64,000 nt of DNA from an uncultured Bacteroidota bacterium. GTDB taxonomy: Bacteria; Bacteroidota; Bacteroidia; UKL13-3. The stretch spans positions 3,420 through 67,419 of the forward strand of contig CAIUQQ010000216.1 in assembly GCA_903901345.1 (NCBI GenBank). Reading direction: 5' to 3'. The notes under the pieces are model-generated. The model saw only the letters and a list, made by a program, of their open reading frames with translations, searched no databases and had not been told where the DNA came from. Below, in pieces: positions 46,936-61,939 of this stretch. The position numbers and the translations under genes are program-made. How positions within the stretch are numbered: the first letter of the stretch is position 1; each line of letters starts with the position of its first letter.

Positions 46936-47060
46936 AGAGCGCTAAAAATACCAAAATATTGCCAAAATAGAAGAATTTTAAAAAGTATCGATTAGTTCAA
47001 AAAAAAATGCTAAATTCGCGTTCCAATTTTTACTTAATTTTAATTGCTAAAGTAAATACT

Positions 47061-47134
47061 GGCCCCGTAGCTCAGCTGGATAGAGCAACAGCCTTCTAAG
47101 CTGTGGGCCATTGGTTCGAATCCAATCGGGGTCA
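47061..47134 (+). tRNA. tRNA-Arg (anticodon TCT)
   Basis: Manual cloverleaf: acceptor GGCCCCG/CGGGGTC; D-arm GCTC-AGCTGGATA-GAGC; anticodon arm ACAGC-CTTCTAA-GCTGT; T-arm ATTGG-TTCGAAT-CCAAT; discriminator A. No encoded CCA. Confidence 0.9.
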
Positions 47135-47150
47135 CGATTAAACAACTAAA

Positions 47151-47184
47151 AAGCCTGTAAATCAATAGATTACAGGCTTTTTTC
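47151..47184 (+). terminator. Intrinsic terminator of the tRNA-Arg gene
   Basis: Perfect 10-bp inverted repeat AAGCCTGTAA...TTACAGGCTT followed by TTTTT. Confidence 0.75.
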
Positions 47185-47285
47185 ATAAAGAGGGTAAACA
47201 TAGGGTAAACATTTCGTTTTTTCCTCTCATAACGCTCACTTACTTTAATTTTCACAAGCACATAATTCATCTATGCTTATACTAT
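47170..47285 (+). promoter_or_regulatory. Repeated regulatory module, copy A: terminator 3' half, tandem direct repeat AGGGTAAACAT x2, conserved box CTCACTTACTTTAATTTTC (possible -7 promoter element)
   Basis: Shares roughly 110 nt with the second copy at 51.15 kb. The tandem decamers sit at 47191-47212 and the conserved box at 47236-47254. Confidence 0.4.
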
Positions 47286-47573
47286 GGATAATTTATGTAC
47301 TTACTATAAATACTATTTACTTTTTGATACGAAGTGTTAGCAAGTAATGCAAACGCAACGGATTAGTTAAGGACTTGAGATGGAGATATTTTAGGAGATA
47401 AAACTCAGATATTTACTATGGAGTTTTTTAATATTACATAAATTTCAGAGTAATTTATGTATTTTAGTTCTGCGATATACAAATTTATTGAAAGGTAAAG
47501 TATAGAAATAAAGTTGGTGCATATAGAAGAAGTTTGAAACATAAAGAATTAGCTAAAATTAAAAACATAGATC

Positions 47574-48551
47574 ATGAAACACAATAATTCAGATTATAAA
47601 AAAACATTTTATTACTGGCCTTTTATAGAAAATAATGTAATTGTAGCAACGCTCAAATACCCAAACTCTTTAGTAGATTATATAGAAAATTTGATTTTTG
47701 ATGTTATTGAAAAAAGAAACCTTATTGAAAAAAGAATTGTTTTCCTTGTTGACAATTTATGGACAAAACAGTTATTGCAAAGTTTATTGTTATGTCGTAA
47801 GGTTATAGATAACGATAATAATATTTTAAATACAACTAATCAAATTACTATTGTTGAAATAACAAATGATTTTGATAATGTAATTTATAAATCTATTGGC
47901 GGCAACATTAATGAAATTATTTATGAAGCAGATACATTTATTCTTATTGATTTTAATGTTTTAATGAATGATAGCAATGAACTTCTTGAACGATTAAGAG
48001 TTTATTGGAAAAATAAATTATGGATTGGAGTAGGACTAAATAATGAAAAAGACACTATTAGATTATTAAGTTTTGGCGAAGAATACATAAACTATTTGCC
48101 AGATTCCCCAGAAACGTTTGAAGGATTTGTAAATGAAGATGTATTAAAGGGGATAGAAAATATTTTAGTATCATTAGGTGATAATGAAGACTCTGGTATA
48201 TTTTCTAAACACTTTTATGGTGAGATTTTTACAGAAGAAAATGACTATACTTTAGCAATAGGAACGAGTGATTTGGTTGAGTGTGAATACGAAGAAGAAG
48301 ATGGCGAAAATGATGAAAACTATGGTGATGATGAAAAATCTTTTTGCGTTGCTATTTTAATTACTAAATATAAATTAGAGCTTTCAATAGAATTACAAGA
48401 TTATGATTGGGATGGCACAGTCTATTTGAATTATAAAATTGACTTTGAAAGTGATATTTATGAAGAAGGCGATATTGGAAAGATAGACGATTTGGTTGAA
48501 GAAATTTGCGAACGAATTAATTCTCAGAAAATAAATGTTCGATTATCTTAA
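47574..48551 (+). CDS. Hypothetical acidic protein (325 aa, D/E-rich C-terminal half)
   Basis: Long ORF at about 27% GC with no recognisable family. First gene after copy A of the module. Confidence 0.5.
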   Translation: MKHNNSDYKKTFYYWPFIENNVIVATLKYPNSLVDYIENLIFDVIEKRNLIEKRIVFLVDNLWTKQLLQSLLLCRKVIDNDNNILNTTNQITIVEITNDFDNVIYKSIGGNINEIIYEADTFILIDFNVLMNDSNELLERLRVYWKNKLWIGVGLNNEKDTIRLLSFGEEYINYLPDSPETFEGFVNEDVLKGIENILVSLGDNEDSGIFSKHFYGEIFTEENDYTLAIGTSDLVECEYEEEDGENDENYGDDEKSFCVAILITKYKLELSIELQDYDWDGTVYLNYKIDFESDIYEEGDIGKIDDLVEEICERINSQKINVRLS

Positions 48552-48662
48552 TATTACATAGGATTGAAACATACAGTGATTGAGTCAGTTTGGTGTATTA
48601 TTAAATTTATAAAAACTAAAAAACTAGCGATTTCGGATTATTAATATTTCAATAAAATTAAG

Positions 48663-49220
48663 ATGGGTGAAAAAGAAAAATACTTTGAAGAGCTAAATAT
48701 TAGCTTCGAAAAGTACCTCAAAACAAAAAGTATATATTCCTTCAAGCAAGTCAAAGGCAAAATGAAGGAGGGCGAGAATAAGTATAAATTTATTTTTAGA
48801 GATTACTATTGGTGGCATCCAAAATGGAGTGTGGCAGATTTTGAAAAATCACTTTCCGATGACGTTAAATTGTTAAAGAGTTTGTGGTCAAAATGGCGAA
48901 AAGTGCATAGAAGTTATGAGGATATGGTATTAAGCAATGAATTATATGCTTTGCATTACCAAGTGTCTTTAAATTTAACAAAAAAATGCGAACACAAATT
49001 TAAAAATGGCAAATATTATTTGGTAAAATCCAACAATAGAGTGTACTTGCATTTTGCTGAATTATTTATTGAATCAGAAAAAAAAATAGCCAGTTCAAGG
49101 CCCGAACCCACAGTAAAATCTAAACCCAAGAAATTTGATGATATCAGGGAATATGCCAAACAACTAAAAAGAGAGATTAGACCAAAAAAACGATTTGATG
49201 TCAGGCTACTCGAAGTTTAA
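48663..49220 (+). CDS. Hypothetical basic protein (185 aa)
   Basis: ORF with a Lys/Arg-rich C-terminus and no known motif. Confidence 0.45.
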   Translation: MGEKEKYFEELNISFEKYLKTKSIYSFKQVKGKMKEGENKYKFIFRDYYWWHPKWSVADFEKSLSDDVKLLKSLWSKWRKVHRSYEDMVLSNELYALHYQVSLNLTKKCEHKFKNGKYYLVKSNNRVYLHFAELFIESEKKIASSRPEPTVKSKPKKFDDIREYAKQLKREIRPKKRFDVRLLEV

Positions 49221-49247
49221 TACGATTATATAAATAAGCCAAAGAAA

Positions 49248-49466
49248 ATGGATGAAGTAGTTAAAAACGAGTTATCAAAATTAAATATGTATGAGGTTAT
49301 TTGCGCTGATGCATTAAGTCAATTACATTTAAATAACCCACAACAATTGGTGGACTTTGAAAAAGATAAAATTATATCATTGTTAAAAAGAATGTTTGAT
49401 GCAGAGAGAGAATACTTAATTGATGAATCTGATGATTATTTAGAAATTTATAAAGAAGAAATTTAA
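49248..49466 (+). CDS. Hypothetical small acidic protein (72 aa)
   Basis: Short ORF closely spaced inside the operon. Confidence 0.35.
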   Translation: MDEVVKNELSKLNMYEVICADALSQLHLNNPQQLVDFEKDKIISLLKRMFDAEREYLIDESDDYLEIYKEEI

Positions 49467-49488
49467 TTTAACTTATTCATCCTTACAA

Positions 49489-50454
49489 ATGGACAACATA
49501 AAAAAAATATTAAAGTCAAAATTAAATTGTGAATCTGTAAATTCTGAAATAGTAGAATTTGATAATGATAATGATTTTCTTCCTAAAAGAGGTAAAATAA
49601 AATTTGATTTTGTAATCAAAAACAATAATAAAATTGAGGCATTAGGTTTAAAAGTTCAGGAAACAGACCTTGACAGTTATGTAAAAGGAATTATTGAAAA
49701 AATACCAAATAATTTTGAATACCCCGTCTTTTATATATCATCAATTAATAATAGCGGTTTATTAACCAGGAATTTGTATTCTTCAGAAAAAATAATGAAT
49801 TTATCAAAGAGACCTGAATATGACATTTTTGAAAACCGTGATGTAATTTATTATGACCATTTAGATAAATTAATATTTGATATTAAAGACCTTTGCAAGG
49901 ACTTAATGAATGAAGAAGATTTTGAATTTCGTGAATTAGCAAGAGAAGTTAAAAATCTACAATGGAAATTAAAGGATAGCGAAAAAAAATATATCAACGA
50001 GAATAATAGTTTAAAGTCAGAAAATAACTATCAAAAAGAAAAGTTAGAAAAACTTGAAATAAAGATTAACAAATACATTAAAACTGATAAAACAAAAACT
50101 ATGTTTGCTATTAGTAATTGTTTGTTTATAACAGAACTAAAAGGAGCAATAAAAAAACTAAAGCTCCCGGAAAGTAATGAAATTAAGTCTGATATAAAAA
50201 CTGGTTACGGATATAATGAAAAATATTCAGTTACAAATTTCATTGATAATAATCATTTTGAATTTTATTTAGGTAATATATCAAATAAATTTTATTTAGT
50301 TCTAGAATCTTATACATGGGTTGCTGAATATAGTAGCAATGTACCCACTACTAATTATTATTATTGTTATGATGATATAAACAATCATTTTACTCTAGTT
50401 AATGGAAATGAGGTAGAGGATATTTTAACATGGATTCCGTTGAAGGATTTTTAA
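49489..50454 (+). CDS. Hypothetical coiled-coil protein (321 aa)
   Basis: Central K/E-rich coiled coil. No family recognised. Confidence 0.45.
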   Translation: MDNIKKILKSKLNCESVNSEIVEFDNDNDFLPKRGKIKFDFVIKNNNKIEALGLKVQETDLDSYVKGIIEKIPNNFEYPVFYISSINNSGLLTRNLYSSEKIMNLSKRPEYDIFENRDVIYYDHLDKLIFDIKDLCKDLMNEEDFEFRELAREVKNLQWKLKDSEKKYINENNSLKSENNYQKEKLEKLEIKINKYIKTDKTKTMFAISNCLFITELKGAIKKLKLPESNEIKSDIKTGYGYNEKYSVTNFIDNNHFEFYLGNISNKFYLVLESYTWVAEYSSNVPTTNYYYCYDDINNHFTLVNGNEVEDILTWIPLKDF

Positions 50455-50570
50455 TTTAATGCTCTTATTATTATAACCTGAAGGTCTTAATTTTATTAGA
50501 TTATATAACAAATCTTTTTTCTAAGGAATATTATTTACCTCGCATCTAAAAATATTTTAAAATTTACATT

Positions 50571-51086
50571 TTGAGTGTTAGTGCAAAAGATATTTTTTAC
50601 TGTATCGCAATTACATTTGTGGTTACATATTGTCCTTCTCTCTATGTCCCTATCCATTTACCATTTGAAGTAAATTTAATTAGTGCTTCTATCTCGATTC
50701 TGAAGTCAATTTTGGAAGAATTTATTTTTCGTTTTTTATTATTAGCCATATGTTGTAATTACTTTGGAATGTTGCAAAGTTTAATAGTATCATCATTACT
50801 TTTTTCATATGCCCATTTTGAATTTAATTGGTTTCAAATAAACTATTTTCTTTTCATTTCAAAATTTACAAGTGGTTTATATTATGGATGGGCATATCTA
50901 TCAACCCGTTCAATAATTGTCCCAATAACTATGCACATTTTGTGGAATATTGCAACTATCCCATTTGAAAAGGTTATTGCGACTGAAACTTCGGTTATCG
51001 AAGTTTATGTTAAAATAACAATTTTGATTTTGGTAGTTATTTATTATAAATATCCAGTAAAGAAGCTTTCTTTAATTCATTATTAA
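50571..51086 (+). CDS. CPBP-family (CAAX/Abi-like) intramembrane glutamic endopeptidase, short form
   Basis: EEFIFRFLLL (EExxxR), FSYAHFEFNW (FxxxH) and MHILWN (HxxxN) motifs within 4-5 TM helices. Probable TTG start. Confidence 0.65.
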   Translation: MSVSAKDIFYCIAITFVVTYCPSLYVPIHLPFEVNLISASISILKSILEEFIFRFLLLAICCNYFGMLQSLIVSSLLFSYAHFEFNWFQINYFLFISKFTSGLYYGWAYLSTRSIIVPITMHILWNIATIPFEKVIATETSVIEVYVKITILILVVIYYKYPVKKLSLIHY

Positions 51087-51147
51087 TAATCTTATATTAC
51101 AATAGAATTCAAATACAATATCAAATAAAATTCCTGATTGAAGAACT

Positions 51148-51270
51148 TTACAGGCTTTTTGATTTAATGGGGGGGAACATAGGGGGAACATTTGAATTGT
51201 TCATTACTTTTTACTCACTTACTTTAATTTTCGTTCACACATACCTTATCCATACCTATGGTATGGTTTA
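51148..51270 (+). promoter_or_regulatory. Repeated regulatory module, copy B: degenerate terminator half TTACAGGCTTTTT, tandem direct repeat GGGGGAACAT x2, conserved box CTCACTTACTTTAATTTTC
   Basis: Aligns with copy A. Both half-sites carry the same TA to GG change relative to copy A. Decamers at 51171-51191 and conserved box at 51214-51232. Confidence 0.4.
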
Positions 51271-51480
51271 TCTATATACAAACTACGTTAAAAACTTTCA
51301 AAATTATACAAAACATGGTGATGTGATGCAATCGCATCACTCCTGATTAAAATGCTTTTTACTTGATATACTTTTGTATAGTCAAACCATTTCTATTCGC
51401 TATATGAATGAAGTTTGATGATTTTGGAGACTGACTGCGCAGCAGTTGACAAAATGTAAATCAATCTAAAAATTAAAAAA

Positions 51481-52230
51481 ATGGCTCAACAAAAAGGCAT
51501 TATAAAGCTAAAAGGAAAAATCGGAGATATTTCCTTTTACAAAACACAAGACGGCCATTTGGCTCGTGAAAAAGGAGGAGTAGATGCTTCACGCATCGCT
51601 AACGATCCTGCTTTTATTCGCACCCGTGAAAATGGTGTAGAATTCGGTTCATCTGCTAGTTCAGGCAAATTGCTAAGAAGTTCATTAAGAAGTATGTTAA
51701 TGACTGCTGGCGATAACAGAGTAACGGCTCGATTAACCAAAACAATGACTGATATTAAAAATTTGGATGCAACATCAGTGCGAGGAAAAAGAACTGTGGG
51801 AATTGCTATTGCTTTAGCGCCAGCTAAAGCGTTGTTAAAAGGTTTTAATTTTAATAATAAGGCAATATTAGGCAGCATCTTATTTAAACCTTATGCAGTA
51901 GCAACAGCCACAGGAATCATTACCATTACAGGACTCGTTCCACTTACTGATATTGCTTTTCCGGAAGGTGCAACGCATGTTAGTTTTAAAAGCTCTTGGG
52001 CAAAGGTGGATTTTACAAATAATGTTTCGGATGTTAAATTATCGAATGTTGTTAATTTGCCAATTAATGCGGTATCGGCTAACGTTGTTTTAACTCCAAC
52101 TGCAGCAGCTGTAGGAACAGGAATAAACTTGTTTGTATTGCAACTGGAGTTTTTTCAATTGGTTAATGCTATTCAGTACACCATGAAAAACGGAACATAC
52201 AATGCGTTATGCATTGTTGAGGTAAGCTAA
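51481..52230 (+). CDS. Hypothetical protein (249 aa, Ala/Thr/Val-rich, beta-rich)
   Basis: First gene after copy B of the module. Composition resembles a phage-structural protein, but no family was recognised. Confidence 0.5.
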   Translation: MAQQKGIIKLKGKIGDISFYKTQDGHLAREKGGVDASRIANDPAFIRTRENGVEFGSSASSGKLLRSSLRSMLMTAGDNRVTARLTKTMTDIKNLDATSVRGKRTVGIAIALAPAKALLKGFNFNNKAILGSILFKPYAVATATGIITITGLVPLTDIAFPEGATHVSFKSSWAKVDFTNNVSDVKLSNVVNLPINAVSANVVLTPTAAAVGTGINLFVLQLEFFQLVNAIQYTMKNGTYNALCIVEVS

Positions 52231-52234
52231 ACAG

Positions 52235-52651
52235 ATGGAATTATTACTCATTAGAACATATGATGTTGTAGGGATCAATGGCACGCTTTATAATTGTGAA
52301 AAAAGTATCTGCCATACGATTGAATTACCCTGGAAAGAAAATCAAAAAATGATTTCCTGTATTCCAGAAGGTCGTTATGAAATTGTAAAAAGATATAATG
52401 CCAAATTTAAATGGCATTTCATACTTATGAACGTGCCAAATAGGTCCTTTATTTTAATTCATCCGGCTAATGATGCGCTTAAAGAATTGAAAGGGTGCAT
52501 TGCACCAGTTTTAGTTTTAGCAGCAGCAGGAAAAGGATATGAATCAAAAAAAGCATTAAAGAGTTTAATTTCTATTATTTACCCTTTACTGGATCAAAAA
52601 GAAAAAATTTATCTAACTATTAAATCAAAACCAAACAATGAGACTCATTGA
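52235..52651 (+). CDS. Small conserved Cys/His protein with a YkuD/L,D-transpeptidase-like motif (possibly the DUF5675 family); putative cell-wall-active enzyme
   Basis: ILIHPANDALKELKGCIAPV resembles the H...(S/T)xGC(I/V) catalytic signature of L,D-transpeptidase-fold enzymes. Additional conserved Cys in CEKSICHTIELPW and SCIPEGRY. Confidence 0.4.
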   Translation: MELLLIRTYDVVGINGTLYNCEKSICHTIELPWKENQKMISCIPEGRYEIVKRYNAKFKWHFILMNVPNRSFILIHPANDALKELKGCIAPVLVLAAAGKGYESKKALKSLISIIYPLLDQKEKIYLTIKSKPNNETH

Positions 52652-52883
52652 CAGATTAAAAGCACCAACACCTAAGTTTTTTAAAGTATTAAGAAATATT
52701 GGTTTAGGATTAGCCGCTGCAGGCGGTGTAATAGTTGCATCGCCAATTGCCATCCCTACAATTATTATAACCATAGGTGGTTATTTAATTGTAGCAGGAA
52801 GTGTAGCAACTGCAGTAAGCCAAATAGTAACAACTACTGAAGGCGATGCTTCGACAAGCACTGCAAACCAAAAAAATAACTGA
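52638..52883 (+). CDS. Small two-TM membrane protein (holin-like topology, 81 aa)
   Basis: Two hydrophobic helices (IGLGLAAAGGVIVASPIAI / IIITIGGYLIVAGSVATAV) and a polar tail. Overlaps the upstream gene by 14 nt. Confidence 0.45.
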   Translation: MRLIDRLKAPTPKFFKVLRNIGLGLAAAGGVIVASPIAIPTIIITIGGYLIVAGSVATAVSQIVTTTEGDASTSTANQKNN

Positions 52884-52910
52884 GTATTAATTATTAAAAT
52901 CATTATTAAA

Positions 52911-53249
52911 ATGACTGAAGAAAAAAATCAAATCGAAAAAACTCAAACTATTGTTGAGTTACAAGTTTTGCCATGTGCTAACGAAGTGGCACCAGCAAAA
53001 CAAAATGTTGAGGTATTAAACCACGAAAATCAAGATGATCCACCATGTGGTAAAATCATCTTAACAGTTACTTGTAACGGATCAAAATTAACTAAAGCAG
53101 ATTCTGGACTCGTTGAAGAATTTCAGGAAGAAGTTTGGGTGACAGTAAAAACAACAAAAGCGGATGCAGGTATTGTACCAAATATTGATTTAAGTGTTCA
53201 TGAAAGATGCACAACAAAAATGACAAAGGCTGATTCCGGTATTGCTTAA
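52911..53249 (+). CDS. Hypothetical acidic protein with three TKADSG-type repeats and four Cys (112 aa)
   Basis: Repeats LTKADSGLV / TTKADAGIV / MTKADSGIA. No signal peptide. Confidence 0.45.
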   Translation: MTEEKNQIEKTQTIVELQVLPCANEVAPAKQNVEVLNHENQDDPPCGKIILTVTCNGSKLTKADSGLVEEFQEEVWVTVKTTKADAGIVPNIDLSVHERCTTKMTKADSGIA

Positions 53250-53259
53250 AAACTAAATT

Positions 53260-53445
53260 ATGTCAACACATCATAACATAGAAAGCGGAACTATCATGGG
53301 CACTGTTTCAGGAACAGTCTTAACTGTATTAGTGAACATAGGTTCATCGGATATTATTAAAACAGTTGTCCTTGCTGTACTTGGTGCAGTGGTTAGTTTT
53401 GGAGTTTCTTTATTGTTAAAGTGGTTACTCCGAAAGTTTAAGTAA
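53260..53445 (+). CDS. Small two-TM membrane protein with a basic C-terminus (holin/antiholin-like, 61 aa)
   Basis: Hydrophobic helices VSGTVLTVLVNIG and VVLAVLGAVVSFGVSLLL, followed by KWLLRKFK. Confidence 0.4.
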   Translation: MSTHHNIESGTIMGTVSGTVLTVLVNIGSSDIIKTVVLAVLGAVVSFGVSLLLKWLLRKFK

Positions 53446-53462
53446 TTTTAAATTAATCTTTA

Positions 53463-53496
53463 AAGCCTTGCACAAAATGTGCAAGGCTTTTTTTTG
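53463..53496 (+). terminator. Strong intrinsic terminator ending the 51.5-53.4 kb operon
   Basis: 11-bp perfect inverted repeat AAGCCTTGCAC-aaaat-GTGCAAGGCTT followed by TTTTTTT. Confidence 0.85.
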
Positions 53497-53497
53497 A

Positions 53498-53920
53498 TTA
53501 CTTTTTTAAATATTTATAAAATAAAGCTTTGCGCAATTGCATTAAATAATCTAATTGTTGATTTAGATTAGTTTGCAAATTTTCAATTTGTGCTAATGTA
53601 TTTTGAACATCAGAAAATGAACGATTGCCGGTATTAACTGAGTTTAAAGTTTCTTCAATTACATCAATAACATCACCTAAGCGAATATATTCGATAACTG
53701 AGCCTTTTAGATGTTTACGAAATAAACGAAGCTCCCATAAGCCTAATAATAAGAAATAGTAAAACTCTTTTTCTTCTTTATTATCTGCCAAAAACACAAA
53801 TGAATTGCATACATAGTGATTAAATGGTTTACCAGAATTTAGACCTTTGTTTAAAATAAAGAAATGTTGTTGTTGATACATTTTACCTGATTTGTGTGTT
53901 TTGATTTTTGATTTTAACAT
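53498..53920 (-). CDS. Hypothetical protein with a C-terminal coiled coil (140 aa)
   Basis: ORF convergent with the terminator. A weak resemblance to the coiled-coil spacer of HsdS-like specificity subunits (AQIENLQTNLNQQLDYLMQLRKALF) is speculative. Confidence 0.35.
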   Translation of the reverse strand: MLKSKIKTHKSGKMYQQQHFFILNKGLNSGKPFNHYVCNSFVFLADNKEEKEFYYFLLLGLWELRLFRKHLKGSVIEYIRLGDVIDVIEETLNSVNTGNRSFSDVQNTLAQIENLQTNLNQQLDYLMQLRKALFYKYLKK

Positions 53921-54289
53921 GATGATTTTTTTAAAGGGTTTGTATCCCTTTTTTCATCTTGTGTTTTGAACCTGTTTACTACTAATTTGAAAACAAAGAA
54001 AAAACCCAAAAAAACGAGCTAAATAAAAGCCCGAAAAAAATGAAAAAAGAAAGCATTTTGAAAAGGCTGAACACTGAGGTTGCCAAGATTTTTGACAAAA
54101 AAAATACTACCTGAATGCGGCAGTATTAATAAACCTTTTACCTTAAATAATGCCGCATGAAGTGTGGAGATTATTTTTGCAAAACCCGAAGGGCTTGACC
54201 TTGCAATCCGAAAGTGGAAAGACTTAAATTGCGCCTCTTTTTTTATTTTGGAATAATTTACCTGTTACTGCATTCTATTTTTAAAATAA

Positions 54290-54830
54290 ACATCAATTGA
54301 AATGTAGAGGTAAAAGCGCCCGCGGCGTGGGAAGGAAAACGGTTGCAAAAAATGAAGTGAGGTACGAACAAAATGATTTGCAATCCGTTGTGCGGCGAGC
54401 CACCTGCGAGTGGAGAGAGGGTGTGCAGCATGGGAGCTTGAGGTACGAAAGCGGATGCAAACTATGTTGCAAGTGTGGCAAAAAGCCCCCTACATTTCCC
54501 CCAGAGGGGGAAGGCAAAAAGGCATGCCACACGATAGCAACACAAGTGCATTTTTGTTGCAATGATTTTATTGCGCTACAAAACAAAAATGCACGAAGCC
54601 CGAGCGACTATGCAGGCGAGCTGAAAAGTTGGTAGCCGGTGGACTGAAAGTGGCTGAGATGAATGAAGTGCAATGGCACCCAGTGGAAGTAGTGAAACGG
54701 ATGTAACGGGTGAATAATGGAGCGAAATGAATGAAGTGGCTTGAAGGACAGGATAGGCTACCGTGACGAAAGCACTGTGCAACGAGCAAAAAATGTGACA
54801 AACTAAAAACCCGAAGGGCAAAATAGCTTA
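54290..54830. ncRNA. Candidate large structured non-coding RNA or other non-coding element: GC-rich (>50% GC) island with stable hairpins and internal direct repeats; strand undetermined
   Basis: GC content jumps sharply against a roughly 30% background. Both strands show stop-free ORFs translating to low-complexity nonsense. 13-bp perfect stem GTGCATTTTTGTT...AACAAAAATGCAC (54546-54596). CCCCCAGAGGGGG hairpin (54489-54501). Many GNRA-like GAAA loops. Direct repeats TGAGGTACGAA x2 and AATGAATGAAGTG x2. Flanked by AAACCCGAAGGGC at 54182 and 54808. Confidence 0.3.
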
Positions 54831-55222
54831 TGCTAAAAGCCTTGAAAAGACTTAGTTAAAGCATGTGCTATTTTGGTTTGGCGCAATTTGTTGCTTGCAC
54901 CTGCTGAGGAACACCACTTTACCTTTTTCTTATTGAAATAGACGACTCAAACTGCAATATTAATTATAGTATTAAATGATGCACTTTATTGAATTGTACT
55001 AATTTCAGTTTCAAGTATTTTCACTTGAACTCGCAATTTTTTTTACTGTTTCTTAGTACTGCTTCGTTTGTAAGTTTATCTCCATTGCTAGTTTAAAGAA
55101 TAACTGCTAAAAAAATAAGACTATGCGTTAAAAAAAAGGGTAGGCAAGAATTTTAATTGAATGTGCATGCTAAAGTAAACTATTAAAAAAAATTAGTTTA
55201 AAAGATTTTTCATTTTAATATA

Positions 55223-55756
55223 TTAATCAAATTTCTCATTATTGAAATGTAATTTTATTATTTTATCTCTGAAAGTAATATATTCTTCCTTTGGGCGATT
55301 GCGGATGGCAAATTTCAAATAGAGAAGTGCCTCCTTATAATTATTTAATTTATAATAAATGCAAGCACACTTGAAATTACAATAATCGTCCCACGAATTA
55401 GATTTTAAAACTGAATAATAATCATTGATTGCATTTTTATATTCAGATAATTGTTCATAACAATTCCCTCTATTAAGATAATACTCTCTAATAGCATTCA
55501 ATGCAATAGCACTTGTAAAATTATTAATTGCCATTCGATAGTCATTATCATAATAATAATTTAAACCGATTGAGTTATAATTCATTGCCTCAGATTCGTC
55601 ATTTTTAGTAATTTTATTTACTTGATTCTTCTCTTTAATTATATTTAAATCTTCAAGTTTACTAACCGATAAGCCAAATAAACCCTTTACGATTTCTGCT
55701 AAAAATATTTTATAAAATATAATAGCAAATCCTACAATAACTATTATTCCAATCAT
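55223..55756 (-). CDS. Membrane-anchored TPR-repeat protein (177 aa)
   Basis: N-terminal TM helix (MIGIIVIVGFAIIFYKIFLA) and TPR-like repeats (YYLNRGNCYEQLSEYKNAINDY, CIYYKLNNYKEALLYLKFA). Confidence 0.55.
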   Translation of the reverse strand: MIGIIVIVGFAIIFYKIFLAEIVKGLFGLSVSKLEDLNIIKEKNQVNKITKNDESEAMNYNSIGLNYYYDNDYRMAINNFTSAIALNAIREYYLNRGNCYEQLSEYKNAINDYYSVLKSNSWDDYCNFKCACIYYKLNNYKEALLYLKFAIRNRPKEEYITFRDKIIKLHFNNEKFD

Positions 55757-55772
55757 TTTATTAGTAATTTAA

Positions 55773-58154
55773 TTATACATTAATACCAAAGCTACTAAGT
55801 TTTCTTAATGATTCAAATCCTTTTTCTATTGATAGCTCTTTGATAATTTCATTTTTATTTAGTGAATTACGAATTGATTTAAGATTTGATAATTCACCGT
55901 ACCCAAAAATTTTAGTTTTTTCACCTATAGAGATAATATTATCCCAGTCTTTTTTAGATATTAATTTAATTCTATCATAAATAACTTTTATATCAACCCC
56001 TTCATTTTCTTTCAATTTTGAAAGTGCTTTAATTTCTTCGATTAGAGAAATATTCTCAGTAATAAATTTTAATCCTTTTTTACCTACAGAGATATCTCGT
56101 AATGATAAATTTTTATTTTCTCTTAATTTATCTGTCAGTTCGGTTAGCGGTGTATTTTCTATTTCTACTGAGGGATTATCAACAATGTATTTAATTAATC
56201 CATCCCAGAATTTAATACCAAGTTTTTTTATTTCACTAATTACAAATAAAGTATCTTCAATATTTTCACCCTCTTTTTCTTTTTCTATTTCTCTTATCTC
56301 TACTATCTCCTTAGTAATAAAATAATCACTAAGATTTGAGAAATCTAAATTATATTTTACTGATTTCAATAATTTCCAACTAGATTCTCTTTTAGCGTAT
56401 TCTGATAATAATGTATTATTGGAAGATTTAAGGTGATTATATACAAAAACAATTAATTTTTTTAAAACAAGCTCTAAAGCATTCGGAACTTTTTGTTCTT
56501 CATAAATTTTCCATAAATCTAATTTGTTATCAGTAAGTTCGTGGAAATAAGACAAGGTATAAGCCACCGTAAATGATTTTAAATTAGTGTCGCCAATTGC
56601 ATCAACATTTTTTCTACCAAATAATTTATCAACTGCTTTAAATAATATTGCATTCGCTATTAATTTTTTATAAAAATTTTCGCCAGGCATTCTGTTTTTT
56701 TCACTTAACTCTTTTATTTTTTTAAGGTATTGAATGAAATTCTTTTGGGCTCCTTGTGAAACATAATGAGGCTCTAAATCCCAAATATTAATGAATTTTG
56801 CAATATCTGATTTTACAAATTTTTGATTAGTTGGATTTTGTTCCTTGAACTTTCTTTGTTGAGCTGGTGTTGTAAGTTTATTTAAAGATTCTCTATACTG
56901 ACCATTTATGCGCTCGAAATACCACAATGTAGATAAATTTCTATTGTCTGGGTCAACAACATATTTTTTTCTAGATAACGATTCAATTTGAACAAAATAG
57001 GGGTTATTAGATGTTAAATCTAATTCTGAAACTTTGTTTTGGCTATTTGCAAATCTTGCTATATTGGGAACTTCAATATTCTTTTGTTCAATATCTTTAA
57101 TTACTGTCAATTTCATTTGAACAAATACTTTACTTAAATCAGCGTCTTTAAATTTCTTTTGGGTATGAAATAACGAAGCTGTTGTTTGACCACCATTAAC
57201 GATTTGAAAATCATTCATTTTGGTTAGATAAAGCTGGTTATCAATAATTTTTGTTTCTACATTTTCAGCAGTTGCAGTAATGCCATTATTATAAGGTAAA
57301 AACATTTGCGGTTTTTCTCTTATTGTATCTCTAATTCCTTTATTGTATTTCCCTGTTTGACCTAAAAATGCACGAACATTGCTTTCTAATAATTCATTAG
57401 AAAATTCTTTGTACAATTTGGCTAAAACATCACCAGGAATAATTGCTAAATAACATTCATATAATTCATTTAAATCAGGCACTTTTAAACACTGAACACC
57501 TTGTGCATTAGAGGGAAGTAAGTCCTTAAATTCAATTTCAATAGGTTCTCTGTTACTTGATGATTCGCTTAATTTATAAAATCTTGGAATATCCCAAACA
57601 TGAACAAAAATATCTAAATCATCGAATCCTTTTATGGATGTTTTTTCCAAATCATGATTTGAATTGCCATTTATTAAAAAATAAATATTTATCCTTTCAA
57701 AGTTTGCTTTTTGCTTGAAGATTATTTTCAAAAGTTCGTTTAACTCTGCTTGTGCTGGATCGATATAATCGATATGGCCTTTCAATGCAGCATTCAAAAA
57801 TTTCTTTATTTGATTAATACATTTATTAAAATCATCTTTAGGTATATTAAAATCATAACTAGAAGAATTAAAGTGAGTAATAAATAAGTCAAGTGTTTCG
57901 AAATAAACCTTATTATCATCTTTAAATTCATCCTTAAGACAATATCCATTTATTTTCCAATCTATTCTACCTTGTGAATCCGGATGAACAAACGATAAAA
58001 CTCTTGCTCCTTCTGATTTTCCAATACCATCTAATATTTCGATACAATACTCAGTAAATTTATCTTCAAAACTTACGCCTTCTCCATCTGAATAAACTAA
58101 TGCTGCAACATCAGATTTTAAAGCTTCTAAATAATTATTTAATCCTCTTTCCAT
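55773..58154 (-). CDS. AIPR-family (abortive-infection phage-resistance-like) protein, 793 aa
   Basis: FLGQTGKYNKGIRDTI...LPYNNGITATAE matches my recollection of the AIPR core. Last gene of a five-gene overlapped operon that starts with dcm. Start overlaps the stop of the upstream gene at 58154. Confidence 0.55.
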   Translation of the reverse strand: MERGLNNYLEALKSDVAALVYSDGEGVSFEDKFTEYCIEILDGIGKSEGARVLSFVHPDSQGRIDWKINGYCLKDEFKDDNKVYFETLDLFITHFNSSSYDFNIPKDDFNKCINQIKKFLNAALKGHIDYIDPAQAELNELLKIIFKQKANFERINIYFLINGNSNHDLEKTSIKGFDDLDIFVHVWDIPRFYKLSESSSNREPIEIEFKDLLPSNAQGVQCLKVPDLNELYECYLAIIPGDVLAKLYKEFSNELLESNVRAFLGQTGKYNKGIRDTIREKPQMFLPYNNGITATAENVETKIIDNQLYLTKMNDFQIVNGGQTTASLFHTQKKFKDADLSKVFVQMKLTVIKDIEQKNIEVPNIARFANSQNKVSELDLTSNNPYFVQIESLSRKKYVVDPDNRNLSTLWYFERINGQYRESLNKLTTPAQQRKFKEQNPTNQKFVKSDIAKFINIWDLEPHYVSQGAQKNFIQYLKKIKELSEKNRMPGENFYKKLIANAILFKAVDKLFGRKNVDAIGDTNLKSFTVAYTLSYFHELTDNKLDLWKIYEEQKVPNALELVLKKLIVFVYNHLKSSNNTLLSEYAKRESSWKLLKSVKYNLDFSNLSDYFITKEIVEIREIEKEKEGENIEDTLFVISEIKKLGIKFWDGLIKYIVDNPSVEIENTPLTELTDKLRENKNLSLRDISVGKKGLKFITENISLIEEIKALSKLKENEGVDIKVIYDRIKLISKKDWDNIISIGEKTKIFGYGELSNLKSIRNSLNKNEIIKELSIEKGFESLRKLSSFGINV

Positions 58155-59125
58155 TATTTAATTAATTCAATAATTGATTCAATATTAAGACGAAAAATTT
58201 CAATAGACGAAAGTTCTATATTATAAGTTGTATTAAAAATACCAATTGGTAAATCACCGGAAACTAATTTTGGGAAGTCATTAGTAACTGAATATTTATA
58301 TGAACATTTTAGTGCGTATTGGCTATTATAATTTTCAATATCTTCATTTATATAACCAACCAATATCAATTTTTCATTGAATAATTTCAAAGCGTTATGA
58401 TTATTGGCTATTTTATTACGAATTTGATCAACAACTGAATTGAGTGAAAAGCCTTTGTCTTTAACTTGTTCCGTTACGTAAAGTACAAGGAATAGATGTG
58501 TTAAATTTTGTGCGTCTAATTGCCTTTCGCTACTTACTTTAATTTTTGGAGTTTTTGAAGATGTGAATTTCACTTCAATACCTTTAGAGCCAAATAAGAA
58601 ATCTTTATCGTCAAAATCTGGTCCAGTCCAACTTTCTAGTAAATTATCTATTGAATAATTCTCATCTAATAATGAATTGAATAATAATAATTCTCCAATT
58701 AGCCCTTTTTGTTTTTCAATAGTTAATCCCTGAAAATTTATTTTATCAAATAATTTTTTCCATTTTAAAACAACATTTGCCGTTTCAATTAACGCTTCGT
58801 TTTCTATAACACATTTTGAAATTTCTTCAAGAATATTCTCAATGAATAAACTAAAAATATCCTTTAATTGATTATCTAAAAGATAAATATTTAATTCTTT
58901 TGAATTATCAAAATCAAAAACCTGAATTAATAATCCTTTAAATTTGAATTTTTTAATCTCTGGGATTTTTGCGTTTACAGAAGTTTCGAGTATGAATAAG
59001 TGATTACCTGTTATGTGATTAGTTGCCGCATAACACTTAAATTGAGGTATTTCTTCAATCCTCGTTTTAATAATAATTTCATCTGTTGGCGACTGATTAG
59101 CCCAAATTGATTTAATGTCAATCAT
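58154..59125 (-). CDS. PD-(D/E)xK-family nuclease-like protein (323 aa)
   Basis: KGLIGELLLFNSLL ... PDFDDKDFLF ... GIEVKFTSS gives the E...D...E-V-K spacing of the restriction-endonuclease fold. Confidence 0.6.
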   Translation of the reverse strand: MIDIKSIWANQSPTDEIIIKTRIEEIPQFKCYAATNHITGNHLFILETSVNAKIPEIKKFKFKGLLIQVFDFDNSKELNIYLLDNQLKDIFSLFIENILEEISKCVIENEALIETANVVLKWKKLFDKINFQGLTIEKQKGLIGELLLFNSLLDENYSIDNLLESWTGPDFDDKDFLFGSKGIEVKFTSSKTPKIKVSSERQLDAQNLTHLFLVLYVTEQVKDKGFSLNSVVDQIRNKIANNHNALKLFNEKLILVGYINEDIENYNSQYALKCSYKYSVTNDFPKLVSGDLPIGIFNTTYNIELSSIEIFRLNIESIIELIK

Positions 59126-59128
59126 GAT

Positions 59129-61939
59129 TTATTCATTTTCAATATTATCATCGTCAACCATCGGTTCATTTTCAAAATCATCTTTTGTAGTCGCCATGTA
59201 AGATACTTTTACCTCATGATCAATTTTCGGAAAATGTAGACTATAACCAATAATGGGTACTCCGAAATCAACATCTGAAGTTCCACGGTCATCCAAAGCA
59301 TATAATAACAATAATCCCTTTTTTTCTCTAGCCCTTCTTTCTTTGATACTACCATCTCCGTTCTCTAATAAATCTACTTGTCTATCTATTGTATCGTCAA
59401 TCTGATTTTTAGTGATTTTATATAATTCGTGGTTCTCAGTTTGATTTCTTACGCTAGATGAAAGTTCAATTAAGTCAGACCCTAATTCGATTGAATATTT
59501 CTTTGTAGGCATTTGTTTTCTTGAATCTTTATTTGGCGTTTTTCCTTGTATCTGATCATATAAATAAACGTCTGAATCAGTATTAGATACAATACAGATA
59601 TTCCATTCTTTTATATTGTTGTTTAATTTTTGTTGTTTTATATATTCAGCAATAACTTCATTATTAATTGATGGGATATTAATTTTGTAATTATTAATAA
59701 ACTCATTTAAATAATCAACATTAACATCTTTATATAAAACATATCTAATTTTTTTTCTTTTTTCTATTAATTCAGTTGGTTTGCCTAGCTTCTTGAATAA
59801 GGTTGAAAATAAATTGAAATTATGCAATATGGACTTCTTATCTTTTAAAAGAAGATATGTTTGCGGGTTTGAACCTGAAAAAGAAATGGTAATGTTTTGA
59901 GCCCAATATAATTTAGCAACACTTGTTACCGTCATTAAGCCATGATGATTTCGGATTTTTAGTCTAAAATCTTTGGGTCTTTGATGGGTTACAGTCATTT
60001 CATCAAAGTCATTTCTCATTTCTTCTGTTGCCATTGTTATATGGTTAAACCATTCAAAAATCTGTTCAGTTGTGTAAAGTCTACATAAATCTACATATCC
60101 TGGTCTGTAGCCAAACCATCTTCCCATTTGCATTAAGGAATCATACATTTTAGTAGTCCTTAAATAATAACTAACTGAAAGGCCTTCTAAAGTAATACCT
60201 CTTGCAAGTCTGCCGCCACCAACTGCTATAACTGATAACCCATTTTCATATCTGCTATAGTCAATCTCTTCTATATTATGATATTCTAAATTTGTTGTTG
60301 ACCTTGTTCCATGAACTGCCCTTACATCAATTTTAGAGGATGCATTTTTTAATTCCAATCTAACATCTTCCCAATGATGATGCTTTATTCTTACATCTGA
60401 ATAGTCTAAGTTTTCTAGAGTATTTATCGTAGTTGGTTTAAAATCATGTTCAAATAATTCTTTCAATTCATGTAAAAATTTAGAATCATCACTTTCAATA
60501 TTATTTTTAAACACTCTTATTTTTTCATTTACTAATAAAGCCACTTTGTCAATCCATTTCACATATAAAGCCACATGAACCAACATTGAGTTGTGTTTTT
60601 TATCATGACCTCTTAATCTTCTGATTGTACAAGTCAGAATAAATGATTTTATTGCTAACTCTAGGCTTTCTGGAAGAAAGTCAGGCAAATCGTCTTTATT
60701 ATTTTTATTTATTGTTGCAAAAAAAGGAGGGTCATAGTCATCAATTTTTCTATAGACATCAAGCGGTTCATTAATTAAATTAGTTATTGGATCCTCTAAA
60801 CCAAAAACCTTTGCTGCCCCAAAGTAATTTTTTGCTGCTTTAATGTTTATAATAAAATCCTTGGGAAATAAATCATCCCCAATTAAATATTCTTTTCCTT
60901 TAACAACAGTTTTTAATTCATCATTATATTCCTGCGAAATAAATAAGTTAGCATAAGGAGTTGCTGTATATCCAATAAAAGTATTTTGGTCAAAAACATT
61001 TAATAATGTTCTAATTAATTTATTTATTGTCTTTACTTCATTTATATCATTTGAAGCATTAACAGAAGCCGCATCAGCTTCATCATCTATTACTAAAACT
61101 GGAACATCAAATAATTTTGGTTGACCATCTATGAATCTAATATTTGAATCTTTTGAAAACCAATCTATTAAATTTTCAAGTATACTTTTATTCTTTTTAA
61201 TTACAAATACTACAGGGTTTTTACCTATAGGAATTTTTGCAGTCTTCGGACTAAAATCACCTTCGTCTCCTCTAATATAGAAGGAAGATGTTAATGGGTA
61301 TATGTCAGTATTTACTTTGTATTTACCAACACCCACTATATTACCTTGTCTTTTAAGAATGAAATCAGAACTACTAATCCCTGTAAATCCTTCATCAATT
61401 CTTTCTTGAGTCTGTCTTCTTAAAGAACTTATTGTACCTGCTATTACAATAATAACTTTATATCCAGCATCTGTCGCTTTATTTATTAATCCCACATAAT
61501 TTGAAGTTTTACCAGATTGAACATGCCCAACAACCATTCCTCTTCTATCCCATGAGTCTGAATTTTTTGGATTAACACATTTGTCTAAAATTCTGTCAGT
61601 AAAATCATCTAAATCATTAACCGGAAAAGAAGGGTCTTTTTCAGCCATATAGGCCTTATACCTTTGCCATAATTCCCAATTTATATTCGCTTTATTGTCC
61701 TTTACCCAAGGTTCAATATCCTCAGATAACATTGTTATAGAGCCTTTACCTATGCTGAAATCTGCCATTAACATCTCAAACAATTCATCTTTATCTATCG
61801 GTTGAGAAGGGTCAATATTTATTACCGATACCTTTTCGATAATTTGTTTTATAATTTCTGGTGTTATTTCTCCTTTTGTTTTTTCGTGATTTAATAAAGT
61901 ATGTGCAATAGCTCTCGCTGAGTGTTTTATATCGTTCAT
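59129..61939 (-). CDS. Z1-domain protein with an N-terminal superfamily-II helicase-like P-loop ATPase (936 aa)
   Basis: Walker A GHVQSGKTSN and Walker B/DEAD-like LVIDDEADAASV. Large C-terminal region typical of Z1 proteins that accompany Dcm methylases. 4-nt overlaps with both neighbouring genes. Confidence 0.7.
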   Translation of the reverse strand: MNDIKHSARAIAHTLLNHEKTKGEITPEIIKQIIEKVSVINIDPSQPIDKDELFEMLMADFSIGKGSITMLSEDIEPWVKDNKANINWELWQRYKAYMAEKDPSFPVNDLDDFTDRILDKCVNPKNSDSWDRRGMVVGHVQSGKTSNYVGLINKATDAGYKVIIVIAGTISSLRRQTQERIDEGFTGISSSDFILKRQGNIVGVGKYKVNTDIYPLTSSFYIRGDEGDFSPKTAKIPIGKNPVVFVIKKNKSILENLIDWFSKDSNIRFIDGQPKLFDVPVLVIDDEADAASVNASNDINEVKTINKLIRTLLNVFDQNTFIGYTATPYANLFISQEYNDELKTVVKGKEYLIGDDLFPKDFIINIKAAKNYFGAAKVFGLEDPITNLINEPLDVYRKIDDYDPPFFATINKNNKDDLPDFLPESLELAIKSFILTCTIRRLRGHDKKHNSMLVHVALYVKWIDKVALLVNEKIRVFKNNIESDDSKFLHELKELFEHDFKPTTINTLENLDYSDVRIKHHHWEDVRLELKNASSKIDVRAVHGTRSTTNLEYHNIEEIDYSRYENGLSVIAVGGGRLARGITLEGLSVSYYLRTTKMYDSLMQMGRWFGYRPGYVDLCRLYTTEQIFEWFNHITMATEEMRNDFDEMTVTHQRPKDFRLKIRNHHGLMTVTSVAKLYWAQNITISFSGSNPQTYLLLKDKKSILHNFNLFSTLFKKLGKPTELIEKRKKIRYVLYKDVNVDYLNEFINNYKINIPSINNEVIAEYIKQQKLNNNIKEWNICIVSNTDSDVYLYDQIQGKTPNKDSRKQMPTKKYSIELGSDLIELSSSVRNQTENHELYKITKNQIDDTIDRQVDLLENGDGSIKERRAREKKGLLLLYALDDRGTSDVDFGVPIIGYSLHFPKIDHEVKVSYMATTKDDFENEPMVDDDNIENE

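Follow-up and report, generated by a model that had tools for sequence, protein, structure and literature searches.

Genomic islands and prophages that target tRNA genes cross over at the T-loop or the 3' end of the gene. Lambda Int and IntDOT are established examples of integrases with an arm-binding N-domain and with arm-type sites on either side of the core, five arm sites in the case of IntDOT (PMC2817482), and the arm-binding-domain recombinases have been described along with the Bacteroidetes IntCTnDOT subgroup that includes IntN1 of NBU1 (PMC8138268). Tandem accretion and decay of integrative elements is described for the ICESt1/ICESt3 family (PMC5704250). IntS of KplE1 autoregulates through arm-type sites overlapping the int promoter (PMC2951348). 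The locus analyzed here, a window of 64,000 nt (i.e., the whole stretch of DNA under study), carries a module that in all likelihood is the P' arm (attL-type end) of a family of integrative elements inserting in the 3' end of tRNA-Arg(TCT). The mechanism is ordinary; the Bacteroidota island family itself has not been described before.

Organization of the two module copies

The module is present in the window as two diverged copies, A at 47170-47289 (to 47306 in the alignment) and B at 51148-51290, which are 70% identical over 138 nt (47170-47306 vs. 51148-51285; BLASTN E = 2e-14). Each consists of a terminator arm and a tandem pair of decamers, followed by a 19-nt box that is the same in both. 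The features of the region are as follows (coordinates, strand, description):

47061..47135 (+), tRNA-Arg(TCT), the integration target, with attB in its 3' part (ARAGORN; Rfam 70 bits; same tRNA at empty sites L108 and L114)
47119..47135 (+), core AATCCAATCGGGGTCAC, tRNA T-loop to 3' end (regular-expression search of the composite; second copy outside the window)
47148..47182 (+), element-borne tRNA terminator hairpin AAAAAGCCTGTAA...TTACAGGCTTTTT, start of the copy A P' arm (different, native terminator at empty sites)
47192..47212 (+), copy A tandem decamers, GGGTAAACAT twice, period 11; putative arm-type integrase sites
47213..47234 (+), copy A T-rich spacer, decamers to box (module alignment)
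47235..47253 (+), copy A 19-nt box CTCACTTACTTTAATTTTC
47254..47306 (+), copy A distal part, CACATA...TATGG (alignment)
47574..51086 (+), unit 1 cargo, five ORFs, the last a CPBP/Rce1-like protease (Pfam)
51148..51160 (+), copy B terminator hairpin, right arm alone, without left arm, partial tRNA or upstream part (shuffle test)
51171..51191 (+), copy B tandem decamers, GGGGGAACAT twice, period 11; type of the P0005/L028 N-domain class
51214..51232 (+), copy B 19-nt box
51233..51290 (+), copy B distal part, homologous to the L007c2 and L014 modules to ~ACAAAC (module alignment)
51481..53920 (.), unit 2 first cargo block: 249-aa ORF, DUF5675, small membrane ORFs, DUF6943 (minus strand)
55223..63405 (-), unit 2 cargo: TPR, AIPR, DUF4420, Z1 and HATPase_c_3 genes (Pfam)

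All sequence elements named in a preliminary description of this DNA were found again on re-scanning, and both copies it reported are real, although their positions had been placed 1-2 nt off. The terminator arm TTACAGGCTTTTT occurs at 47170-47182 in copy A and at 51148-51160 in copy B, and in reverse complement it recurs at 47148-47160 as the left arm of the hairpin that serves as tRNA terminator. In both copies a single A separates the decamers, giving GGGTAAACAT-A-GGGTAAACAT (TA/TA) in copy A and GGGGGAACAT-A-GGGGGAACAT (GG/GG) in copy B. The tandem decamer pattern is found in only 2 places in the window (0.08 expected by chance), and the 19-nt box, when up to three mismatches are allowed, has only its two known matches there (0.06 expected). 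A third copy from the same strain, together with relatives, sets the true left boundary of the repeat unit at 47119 inside the tRNA T-loop, and not inside the tRNA terminator where it was originally placed. Copy B has lost its left part: upstream of 51148 the similarity to the canonical sequence does not exceed chance, an equally good score being reached by 1217 of 2000 shuffles.

An island array extending beyond the window

The window is continued by contigs L039, which is 100% identical to positions 51936-64000, and L040, which is 100% identical to positions 59847-64000 and whose bases 1-1944 are 100% identical to L003 5551-7494; window and matching contigs give a composite of 78.8 kb. A resident tyrosine integrase of 402 aa with an arm-binding domain is located ~9 kb beyond the window end, and its gene (L040 236-1444) is identical to the L003 integrase. 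Beside it lies the P-arm pair GGGTAAACAAT-A-GGGTAAACAT, which is of the same type as the P' decamers of copy A and is followed by a 17-nt partial tRNA, AATCCAATCGGGGTCAC, and then by a third module copy (copy C; 89% identity with copy A over 171 nt). The composite has three modules, two of them in the 64 kb.

The array starts with tRNA-Arg, copy A (TA/TA), unit 1 (without integrase) and copy B (GG/GG, left-truncated), continues with unit 2 (22 kb; defence cargo, backbone and integrase), the P-arm decamers (TA/TA) and the 17-nt partial tRNA, and ends with copy C (GG/TA), a hipBA relic, a degenerate tRNA end with a non-module-type terminator, and host genes. The first cargo block of unit 2 is 97% identical to L014 up to 53455, and past the window unit 2 comprises Dcm, the backbone (386 aa, 128 aa, HTH_17, 312 aa, PIF1 helicase, 324 aa) and the integrase. 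The duplication of the target 3' end (47119-47135 and composite 73183-73199) is likewise seen in L007, L009, and L113, and partial tRNA ends precede the modules in L003, L007c2, L009, and L113.

Unit 1 lacks an integrase and has neither a P arm nor a core at its right end, and no homologue of the family integrase was found in the 47.2-51.1 kb region or in the rest of the window (tblastn; Pfam). The arms of unit 2, the sole unit for which both were seen in the same strain, are mismatched, i.e., the P' arm (copy B) is GG/GG whereas the P arm and the integrase N-domain are TA-type. None of the loci recovered was an intact active element complete with its two arms, and a circular junction from excision was not seen either.

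Occupied and empty sites

At empty sites in related strains (L108/L109, L114-L116, L118) tRNA-Arg is followed by a native terminator and a host gene, DUF1801, and decamers and box are absent. In L113 a single hipBA unit lies between the full tRNA with its module and, at the other end, a degenerate partial tRNA with native terminator. When 185,579 genomes, the JGI metagenomes and IMG/VR were scanned for the exact box, only nine module copies came up outside the window, eight of which follow a full or partial tRNA-Arg end. The remaining one, in L014, is orthologous to truncated copy B and lacks a tRNA end. The 19-nt box was found in all module copies recovered, but its apparent invariance is biased because the exact-box search supplied most of them; the L113 module was recovered independently of the box. 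A dispersed intergenic repeat (REP/MITE-like) was rejected, as the copies are few and eight of the nine found elsewhere are at tRNA-Arg ends.

Decamer type and the integrase N-terminal domain

The L009 integrase, 80% identical to the resident integrase, contains Arm-DNA-bind_5 (50.3 bits), Phage_int_SAM_5 and Phage_integrase (hmmscan); the annotation of the resident integrase gene in L040 lists PF17293, PF13102, and PF00589, and the same three domains are precomputed for homologues. All loci with available DNA upstream of a family integrase (ten loci, nine different integrases) carry, on the strand opposite to the gene and ~45-50 nt ahead of its start codon, a matched homogeneous decamer pair, and a partial tRNA end is located ~110-125 nt beyond the pair in 8/8 integrase loci with enough upstream DNA. 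P-arm and P' pairs of GGnnAACAT share orientation in L003/L040 and L009. Whatever the type, the decamers repeat with a period of 12 in all P arms and of 11 in all P' arms, which marks the pairs as old structures rather than products of recent slippage.

The decamer types GGGTAAACAT, GGGGGAAC, and TGGGAAACAT track the N-terminal domain of the integrase and not the remaining protein. N-domains that share a decamer type are on average 65.5% identical and those of different types 48.1%, while the corresponding values for the rest of the integrase are 69.7 and 70.6%, and the type-specific residues are concentrated at residues 8-45 of the arm-binding domain. The P0005 integrase combines a body 93% identical to that of L003 with an L028-like N-domain, and its decamers were GGGGGAAC-type as predicted before look-up; the P0020 integrase locus had TGGGAAACAT decamers, again matching the prediction. 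As the type follows the N-domain and both predictions held, the decamers are probably arm-type integrase sites. The proposal in the preliminary description that cognate, diverged DNA-binding proteins recognize the decamers fits with this, the type tracking the arm-binding domain in nine integrases. It is conceivable, however, that the correlation could reflect physical linkage of the P-arm decamers to the N-domain coding region, only ~50 nt away, in mosaic recombination without functional coupling. Among more distant relatives, eight IMG/VR loci have a GGGAAACAT- or GGTAAACAT-type pair ~50-170 nt from the start of an integrase that is 20-31% identical to those of the tRNA-Arg island family.

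Relic P' arms are less uniform. They are mixed (TA/GG or GG/TA) in L003, L007c1, L009, L024, and L113, L014 has GGGGGAACAT/GGGTGAGCAT, and L007c2 has one decamer. Co-variation of the half-sites, initially taken as characteristic of the module, is thus no general rule, and strict one-variant-per-element specificity is unsupported for P' arms.

A model for the array

The assignment of the module to P' arms of stacked elements is based on the empty sites without module and on the integrase, P arm, partial tRNA and third copy beyond the window, and it agrees with one of the readings first offered, namely ends of related mobile units in tandem. Each incoming element would carry its own tRNA 3' end, terminator, two tandem decamers and 19-nt box, and integration would set the new arm directly after the tRNA and shift older arms downstream. 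We infer that the N-terminal Arm-DNA-bind_5 domain of the integrase binds the decamers and that the target of its catalytic domains is the core in the tRNA T-loop; the 19-nt box may also have a role. The decamer variants would correspond to different N-domain classes, which would be why both half-sites of a pair are usually the same variant. Copy B is an internal relic without the crossover core and has presumably lost site-specific recombination for this reason. The sole matched complete ends for the resident TA-type integrase would be copy A plus tRNA at one end and P arm plus partial tRNA at the other, and excision of a ~26 kb composite is predicted from this single pair.

It is tempting to speculate, although only as a tentative possibility, that GGGTAAACAT, GGGGGAAC, TGGGAAACAT, and perhaps other GGnnAACAT sequences are orthogonal arm-site classes read by exchangeable N-domains of ~60 residues. 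If so, no element in a stack at a single tRNA would be open to the integrases of the others, and the arms matching the resident integrase would decide which units leave together; here copy A and the distal P arm would leave jointly, and non-cognate copy B would be skipped. Swapping of domain plus site would then be a simple natural way of reprogramming the directionality and partner choice of a tyrosine integrase.

Alternative explanations

The preliminary description viewed the module as regulatory and as preceding each cargo operon. A promoter or operator of the cargo operons was rejected, as the module contains no TAnnTTTG/TTTG pair of the Bacteroidetes -7/-33 promoter consensus and in L007c1, L009, L024, and L113 abuts the 3' end of a convergent hipA remnant. 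The iteron or partition function also considered there finds no counterpart at the locus, where each site has two repeats only, no rep or par gene is present and Pfam detected no Rep/Par domains in the flanking ORFs. The decamers might instead be operators of a non-integrase regulator (the HTH_17 excisionase-like protein or a repressor) controlling int and adjacent genes, with the module being regulatory DNA that is at element ends incidentally. The P-arm pair does occupy a promoter/operator position 45-50 nt upstream of the int start codon, an HTH_17 protein is encoded in every backbone, and copies A and B are each 200-300 nt upstream of a co-oriented ORF. We nevertheless regard this as improbable, since even in mosaic integrases the decamers go with the N-domain (a comparison made among the integrases), and since the missing consensus and the convergent hipA 3' end (L007, L009, L113) speak against it as well. 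Arm sites doubling as int operators are known from KplE1 IntS (PMC2951348), and the two roles are therefore compatible.

Identity of the half-sites could also be a neutral by-product of slippage, gene conversion or block replacement, any family integrase reading GGnnAACAT without specificity classes. This is rather unlikely but accounts for several observations: decamer copy number varies (one in L007c2), mixed pairs occur, the arms of unit 2 are mismatched, L018 and copy A share spacer, box and island (~78-80% identity) while terminator and decamers are wholly replaced, and a ~35-nt patch in copy B separates L014 from the window in an otherwise 97% identical region. On the other hand, the periods are fixed (12 in P, 11 in P') in all types and the spacer bases differ between lineages, so that recent duplication does not explain the matching of half-sites; moreover, 10/10 P-arm pairs beside intact integrases are homogeneous, and the type-specific residues cluster within positions 8-45 of the arm-binding domain. 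That the module is host sequence, either a conserved region after the tRNA or a dispersed repeat copied by segmental duplication, is suggested by the location of copy A directly 3' of the tRNA, whose terminator it provides. This is extremely unlikely given that in related strains the module is missing from empty sites, where the terminator is a different one, that just two copies are present in the window, and that the exact-box scans gave only nine outside it, nearly all (8/9) at full or partial tRNA-Arg ends.

Comparison with known systems

As in other islands and prophages targeting tRNA genes, the element brings a replacement tRNA 3' end and a direct repeat of 17-20 nt marks its far boundary. 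Here, however, the repeated block reaches ~150 nt past the tRNA, since a homologous P' arm comes with each of the adjacent units. The putative integrase-binding repeats resemble those of KplE1 IntS (PMC2951348) in being immediately upstream of int, a likeness of position, and repression of int by them may therefore also be possible; copies A and B differ in being P' arms without an adjacent int gene.

With the accretion of ICESt1/ICESt3 and CIMEs the array shares successive integrations at one target gene and decay of older units, and, as in ICESt1/ICESt3 accretion, internal att-like repeats are found between units and the composite may move as one piece. Like a CIME, unit 1 has lost its integration genes, but it has not kept functional attL and attR, its right att site (copy B) being without core and P arm. 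The hosts also differ, with Bacteroidota islands here and Firmicutes for ICESt1/ICESt3.

With the elements of lambda Int, IntDOT and IntN1 the family shares a three-domain integrase with an N-terminal arm-binding domain, short direct repeats placed asymmetrically on both sides of the core, an int gene adjoining the P arm and an excisionase-like HTH gene in the element. CTnDOT targets no tRNA, whereas the island family inserts in tRNA-Arg. Unlike in these systems, each arm of the family has its two sites in tandem, the period being fixed at 12 (P) or 11 (P'), and at least three decamer variants co-segregate with swapped N-domains in integrases that are otherwise 75-93% identical.

Module copies in the window and at occupied sites

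Two copies of the module had been described in the preliminary description, and all of their named elements were found in place.

Elements of the two module copies in the window
47170-47182: copy A, 13-mer TTACAGGCTTTTT
47192-47212: copy A, tandem decamer pair, GGGTAAACAT twice
47235-47253: copy A, 19-nt box CTCACTTACTTTAATTTTC
51148-51160: copy B, 13-mer TTACAGGCTTTTT
51171-51191: copy B, tandem decamer pair, GGGGGAACAT twice
51214-51232: copy B, 19-nt box CTCACTTACTTTAATTTTC

In a pattern scan of the 64-kb window the 13-mer, the box and the decamer pattern were each found at these two places only, where 0.45 (one mismatch allowed), 0.06 and 0.08 occurrences, respectively, are expected by chance, and the two copies are 70% identical over 138 nt (BLASTN, E = 2e-14). 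Copy A follows a tRNA-Arg(TCT) gene (47061-47135), whose terminator hairpin has the common 13-mer as its right arm and 47148-47160 as its left. Upstream of 51148 similarity to the canonical module was only at chance level in a local-alignment shuffle test, which also ruled out a decayed tRNA end 5' of copy B hinted at by a MAFFT alignment. Copy B is an internal junction at which the partial tRNA, the left terminator arm, the P arm (the element end beside the integrase) and the integrase of unit 1, i.e., the cargo between copies A and B, have all been lost. Rfam searches, one at the gathering threshold and one of 46900-55300 at E<=1, gave no RNA family in the module, the sole real match being the tRNA.

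Nine real copies of the module were found outside the window, at loci L003, L007 (two), L009, L014, L018, L024, and L113; that of L113 was reached by way of a flanking gene and the others by searching genomes, metagenomes and IMG/VR for the exact 19-nt box. The exact-box matches in L001, L002, L004-L006, L008, L010-L013, L015-L017, L019-L023, and L025-L027 are chance matches in unrelated coding sequence. A complete tRNA-Arg precedes the module in L007c1, L018, and L024; in L003, L007c2, and L009 it is preceded by no more than the final 17-19 nt of the tRNA (AATCCAATCGGGGTCAC), with unrelated DNA 5' of that. Immediately upstream of the partial tRNA in L003 and L009 is a tyrosine integrase of ~402 aa, with Arm-DNA-bind_5, Phage_int_SAM_5, and Phage_integrase domains in the L009 protein, the one scanned. 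The layout of the L003/L007/L009 type is that of elements in tandem at the tRNA 3' end.

Empty sites

Sites without an element were reached via homologues of the flanking GT2 gene. In L108/L109, L114-L116, and L118 a native terminator, different from the module's, and then the host gene DUF1801 come after the tRNA, and neither decamers nor box are present at these sites. The right-hand junction in L031 and L033 reads integrase, decamer pair, partial tRNA, native terminator, DUF1801, and in L113 a lone hipBA unit has the full tRNA and module on one side and a degenerate partial tRNA and the native terminator on the other. The module is thus element-borne and not host DNA. Both the empty sites and the layout in relatives agree with the second of the alternatives originally offered, that the copies are ends of related mobile units inserted in tandem.

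In several strains a hipBA toxin-antitoxin unit (L003 3169-5079; L007 1059-2772; L009 7695-9041; L113 5847-7402; L036) is the oldest one at the tRNA, with its integrase down to a remnant; in L036 the unit is intact (int-hipB-hipA) and its P arm GG-type. In L028 (~2600-2760, minus orientation) a terminator like that of the module lies downstream of a partial tRNA beside a 54%-identical integrase, and beyond it comes a tandem repeat of another kind, TTCGGTTACCT twice, with an inverted copy nearby; this repeat may be the arm of an older element that had another integrase type. The partial tRNA ends upstream of the integrase differ in L030, L037, L038, and L028 (e.g., ...GTGCTACGGGTGGGAGCAC and ...AATCCCAGCGGGATCACA), so target choice varies within the integrase family. 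The integrases of these loci are family members with more divergent core/catalytic parts.

Genomic setting and cargo

The window is low-GC Bacteroidota DNA with T9SS sorting domains. To the left of the tRNA are housekeeping genes (DHFR, GpsA, GT2 glycosyltransferase), and to the right uncharacterised ORFs and then an AIPR / DUF4420 / Z1 / HATPase_c_3 cluster up to the window end. No integrase was found within the window by tblastn. For the cargo, PADLOC gave zero matches, PHROGs matches were to families of unknown function only, and Pfam recognised only Rce1-like, DUF5675, and DUF6943 domains in the ORFs near the copies. Together with a Dcm methylase the cluster (55773-63405, minus strand, continuing into contigs L039/L040 of the same strain) is the cargo of the integrase-bearing unit and a putative defence system; related elements carry MmeI-like restriction-modification, GmrSD, SMC-like, and Fic genes at the same position.

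Between 51481 and 53445 (plus strand) lies a five-gene operon, encoding a 249-aa ORF, a DUF5675 protein (138 aa) and ORFs of 81, 112, and 61 aa; two of the small ORFs are predicted membrane proteins. The operon is 97% conserved in L014 and its PHROG matches are all of unknown function, while the DUF5675 protein has an H...G-C-I motif that by eye recalls YkuD-type L,D-transpeptidases. An ORF-poor, purine-rich stretch follows (54000-54940, plus strand), with a GC content of 0.40-0.42 vs ~0.28 in the surroundings and no Rfam match. Its part 54280-54940 folds much better than shuffled sequence (z = -4.7 on the plus and -3.8 on the minus strand). The terminal 158 nt (54777-54934) match L007 565-722 at 95.6% identity, against only ~80% for the flanking genes, and in L007 they sit immediately between a copy of the module and an HTH_17 gene. 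The stretch may be an element-borne structured RNA or leader.

Decamers beside integrases

The loci with sequence upstream of a family integrase are L003/L040, L009, L028, L029, L030, L031-L034, L036, L037, and L038. All of these loci have a tandem decamer pair ~45-50 nt upstream of the integrase start codon on the opposite strand, both decamers being of the same type, and wherever sequence extends that far (all but L036 and L040) a partial tRNA end lies ~110-125 nt past the pair. Without exception, the decamers repeat with a period of 12 in P arms and of 11 in P' arms (the module-bearing ends). P0014, predicted to have a GG-type pair, was left out of the typing, as its contig begins 19 nt upstream of the integrase.

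Decamer types and the integrases beside them
GGGTAAACAT: L003, P0004, P0009
TGGGAAACAT: L009, P0008, P0020, P0018
GGGGGAAC: L028, P0005

Decamer type follows the integrase N-domain (residues 1-95), where mean identity is 65.5% within a type vs 48.1% across types, whereas the rest of the protein is not split (69.7% vs 70.6%). Type-specific residues are concentrated at positions 8-45. The integrases P0001-P0060 are mosaics in which the N-terminal ~60 residues and the remainder have different nearest relatives; in P0005, for example, the N-domain shares 62% identity with L028 and the body 93% with the L003 integrase. Such mosaics point to recombination between the arm-binding and core/catalytic domains. 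P0005, with its L028-like N-domain, was predicted in advance to carry GGGGGAAC and P0020 to carry TGGGAAACAT, and both were found to do so. A homologue of the family was detectable at 8 of 67 IMG/VR loci; the integrases at these eight loci are 20-31% identical to the family, and GGGAAACAT-type or GGTAAACAT-type pairs lie ~50-170 nt from the integrase start, in the same relative orientation in seven. Viral contigs (IMG/VR L041-L107) commonly have tandem GGnnAACAT(TT) repeats, some as arrays of 3-6 copies (e.g., GGATAACATTT and GGAAAACATTT), and often ~45 nt from a divergent start codon. The remaining loci may hold other integrases or unrelated repeat-binding systems.

Because decamer type and N-domain go together and arm-binding domains have an established role (PMC2817482, PMC8138268), the decamers are, by analogy, best read as putative arm-type sites. 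A real alternative is that the correlation stems from close linkage of the P-arm pair to the region coding for the N-domain. The earlier suggestion of a regulatory module preceding each cargo operon found no support: no Bacteroidetes -7/-33 consensus lies inside copy A or B, the TAnnTTTG nearest to copy B is at 51369, outside the copy, and a consensus scan of the box and the distal CACATA...TATGG segment recognised no Bacteroidetes promoter. Several relatives have a convergent gene whose 3' end is turned towards the module. Readings as iteron, partition site, promoter, or dispersed repeat each conflict with a defining feature that was tested, and every feature of an att-site arm that sequence can address was found. 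The invariance of the box is overstated, as most copies came from searching for the box itself; it may be an accessory-protein site or simply a piece of the minimal P' arm. Besides the decamers and a T-tract, comparison of P and P' arms gave no convincing common box.

The array in the window's own strain

The last complete protein of the window (61936-63405, minus strand) is also encoded on L039 and L040, which are 100% identical to window 51936-64000 and 59847-64000, respectively, and L040 1-1944 is 100% identical to L003 5551-7494. Joining the window, L039/L040 and L003 gave a composite of 78.8 kb.

Order of features in the composite past the window end
Dcm
Conserved backbone: 386 aa, 128 aa, HTH_17, 312 aa, PIF1 helicase, 324 aa
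71794-73002, minus strand: integrase
73052-73073: decamer pair GGGTAAACAAT-A-GGGTAAACAT
73183-73199: partial tRNA
73256-73276: module copy C, decamers GGGGGAACAT/GGGTAAACAT
73299-73317: module copy C, box
hipBA relic and integrase remnant
Degenerate tRNA end, its terminator unlike the module's own
Host T9SS phosphatase gene

This order of genes and modules makes an array of three units. Copy C matches copy A over 171 nt, from 47119, at 89% identity. The resident integrase is TA-type, as are its P arm and copy A; copy B is not, and it also lacks the core. Since copy B is non-TA and coreless, the sole complete matched ends are copy A together with the tRNA on one side and, on the other, the distal P arm together with the partial tRNA.

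Mosaic arms

The proposed co-variation of the half-sites stood for P arms beside intact integrases, copy A, copy B, and L018, but not for relic P' arms, which are often mixed: TA/GG in L007c1, L009, L024, and L113, and GG/TA in L003. The L014 pair is GGGGGAACAT/GGGTGAGCAT, and L007c2 has one decamer only. No intact element with both arms was found, as contigs L029-L040 all end before the P' end of the element. Copy A and L018, ~78-80% identical across the region, align closely from the spacer onward, but their terminators are unrelated and their decamers differ in type; L014, with 97% overall identity to the window, nevertheless differs in a ~35-nt patch inside copy B. The modules are mosaics. 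Recombination between stacked homologous arms would yield chimeric arms and could replace a decamer pair as one block.

Implications and comparison with known systems

What appeared to be a regulatory module now serves as a map of a ~28-kb array of putative defence islands at tRNA-Arg, with unit boundaries defined and, as judged from sequence, one apparently live integrase among fossil ends. Such islands have a signature, a GGnnAACAT pair ~50 nt 5' of an Arm-DNA-bind_5 integrase plus another pair past a partial tRNA, that is usable to delimit them in Bacteroidota metagenomes, where related islands carry restriction-modification and abortive-infection cargo. If the link between decamer and N-domain is functional, the family offers natural matched pairs of integrase and arm site as candidates for orthogonality, a modest but usable lead for recombinase engineering.

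Literature searches gave no match to a published description of the element family, its tRNA-Arg target or the decamer classes, all of which appear to be new. The kind of system is well known and the mechanism is textbook. Unit 1 falls outside the definition of a cis-mobilizable element, because its right-hand site is broken. The module system works like the attachment sites of lambda and the CTnDOT type, and the tandem accretion and decay seen here are like those known for ICESt-type elements (PMC5704250).
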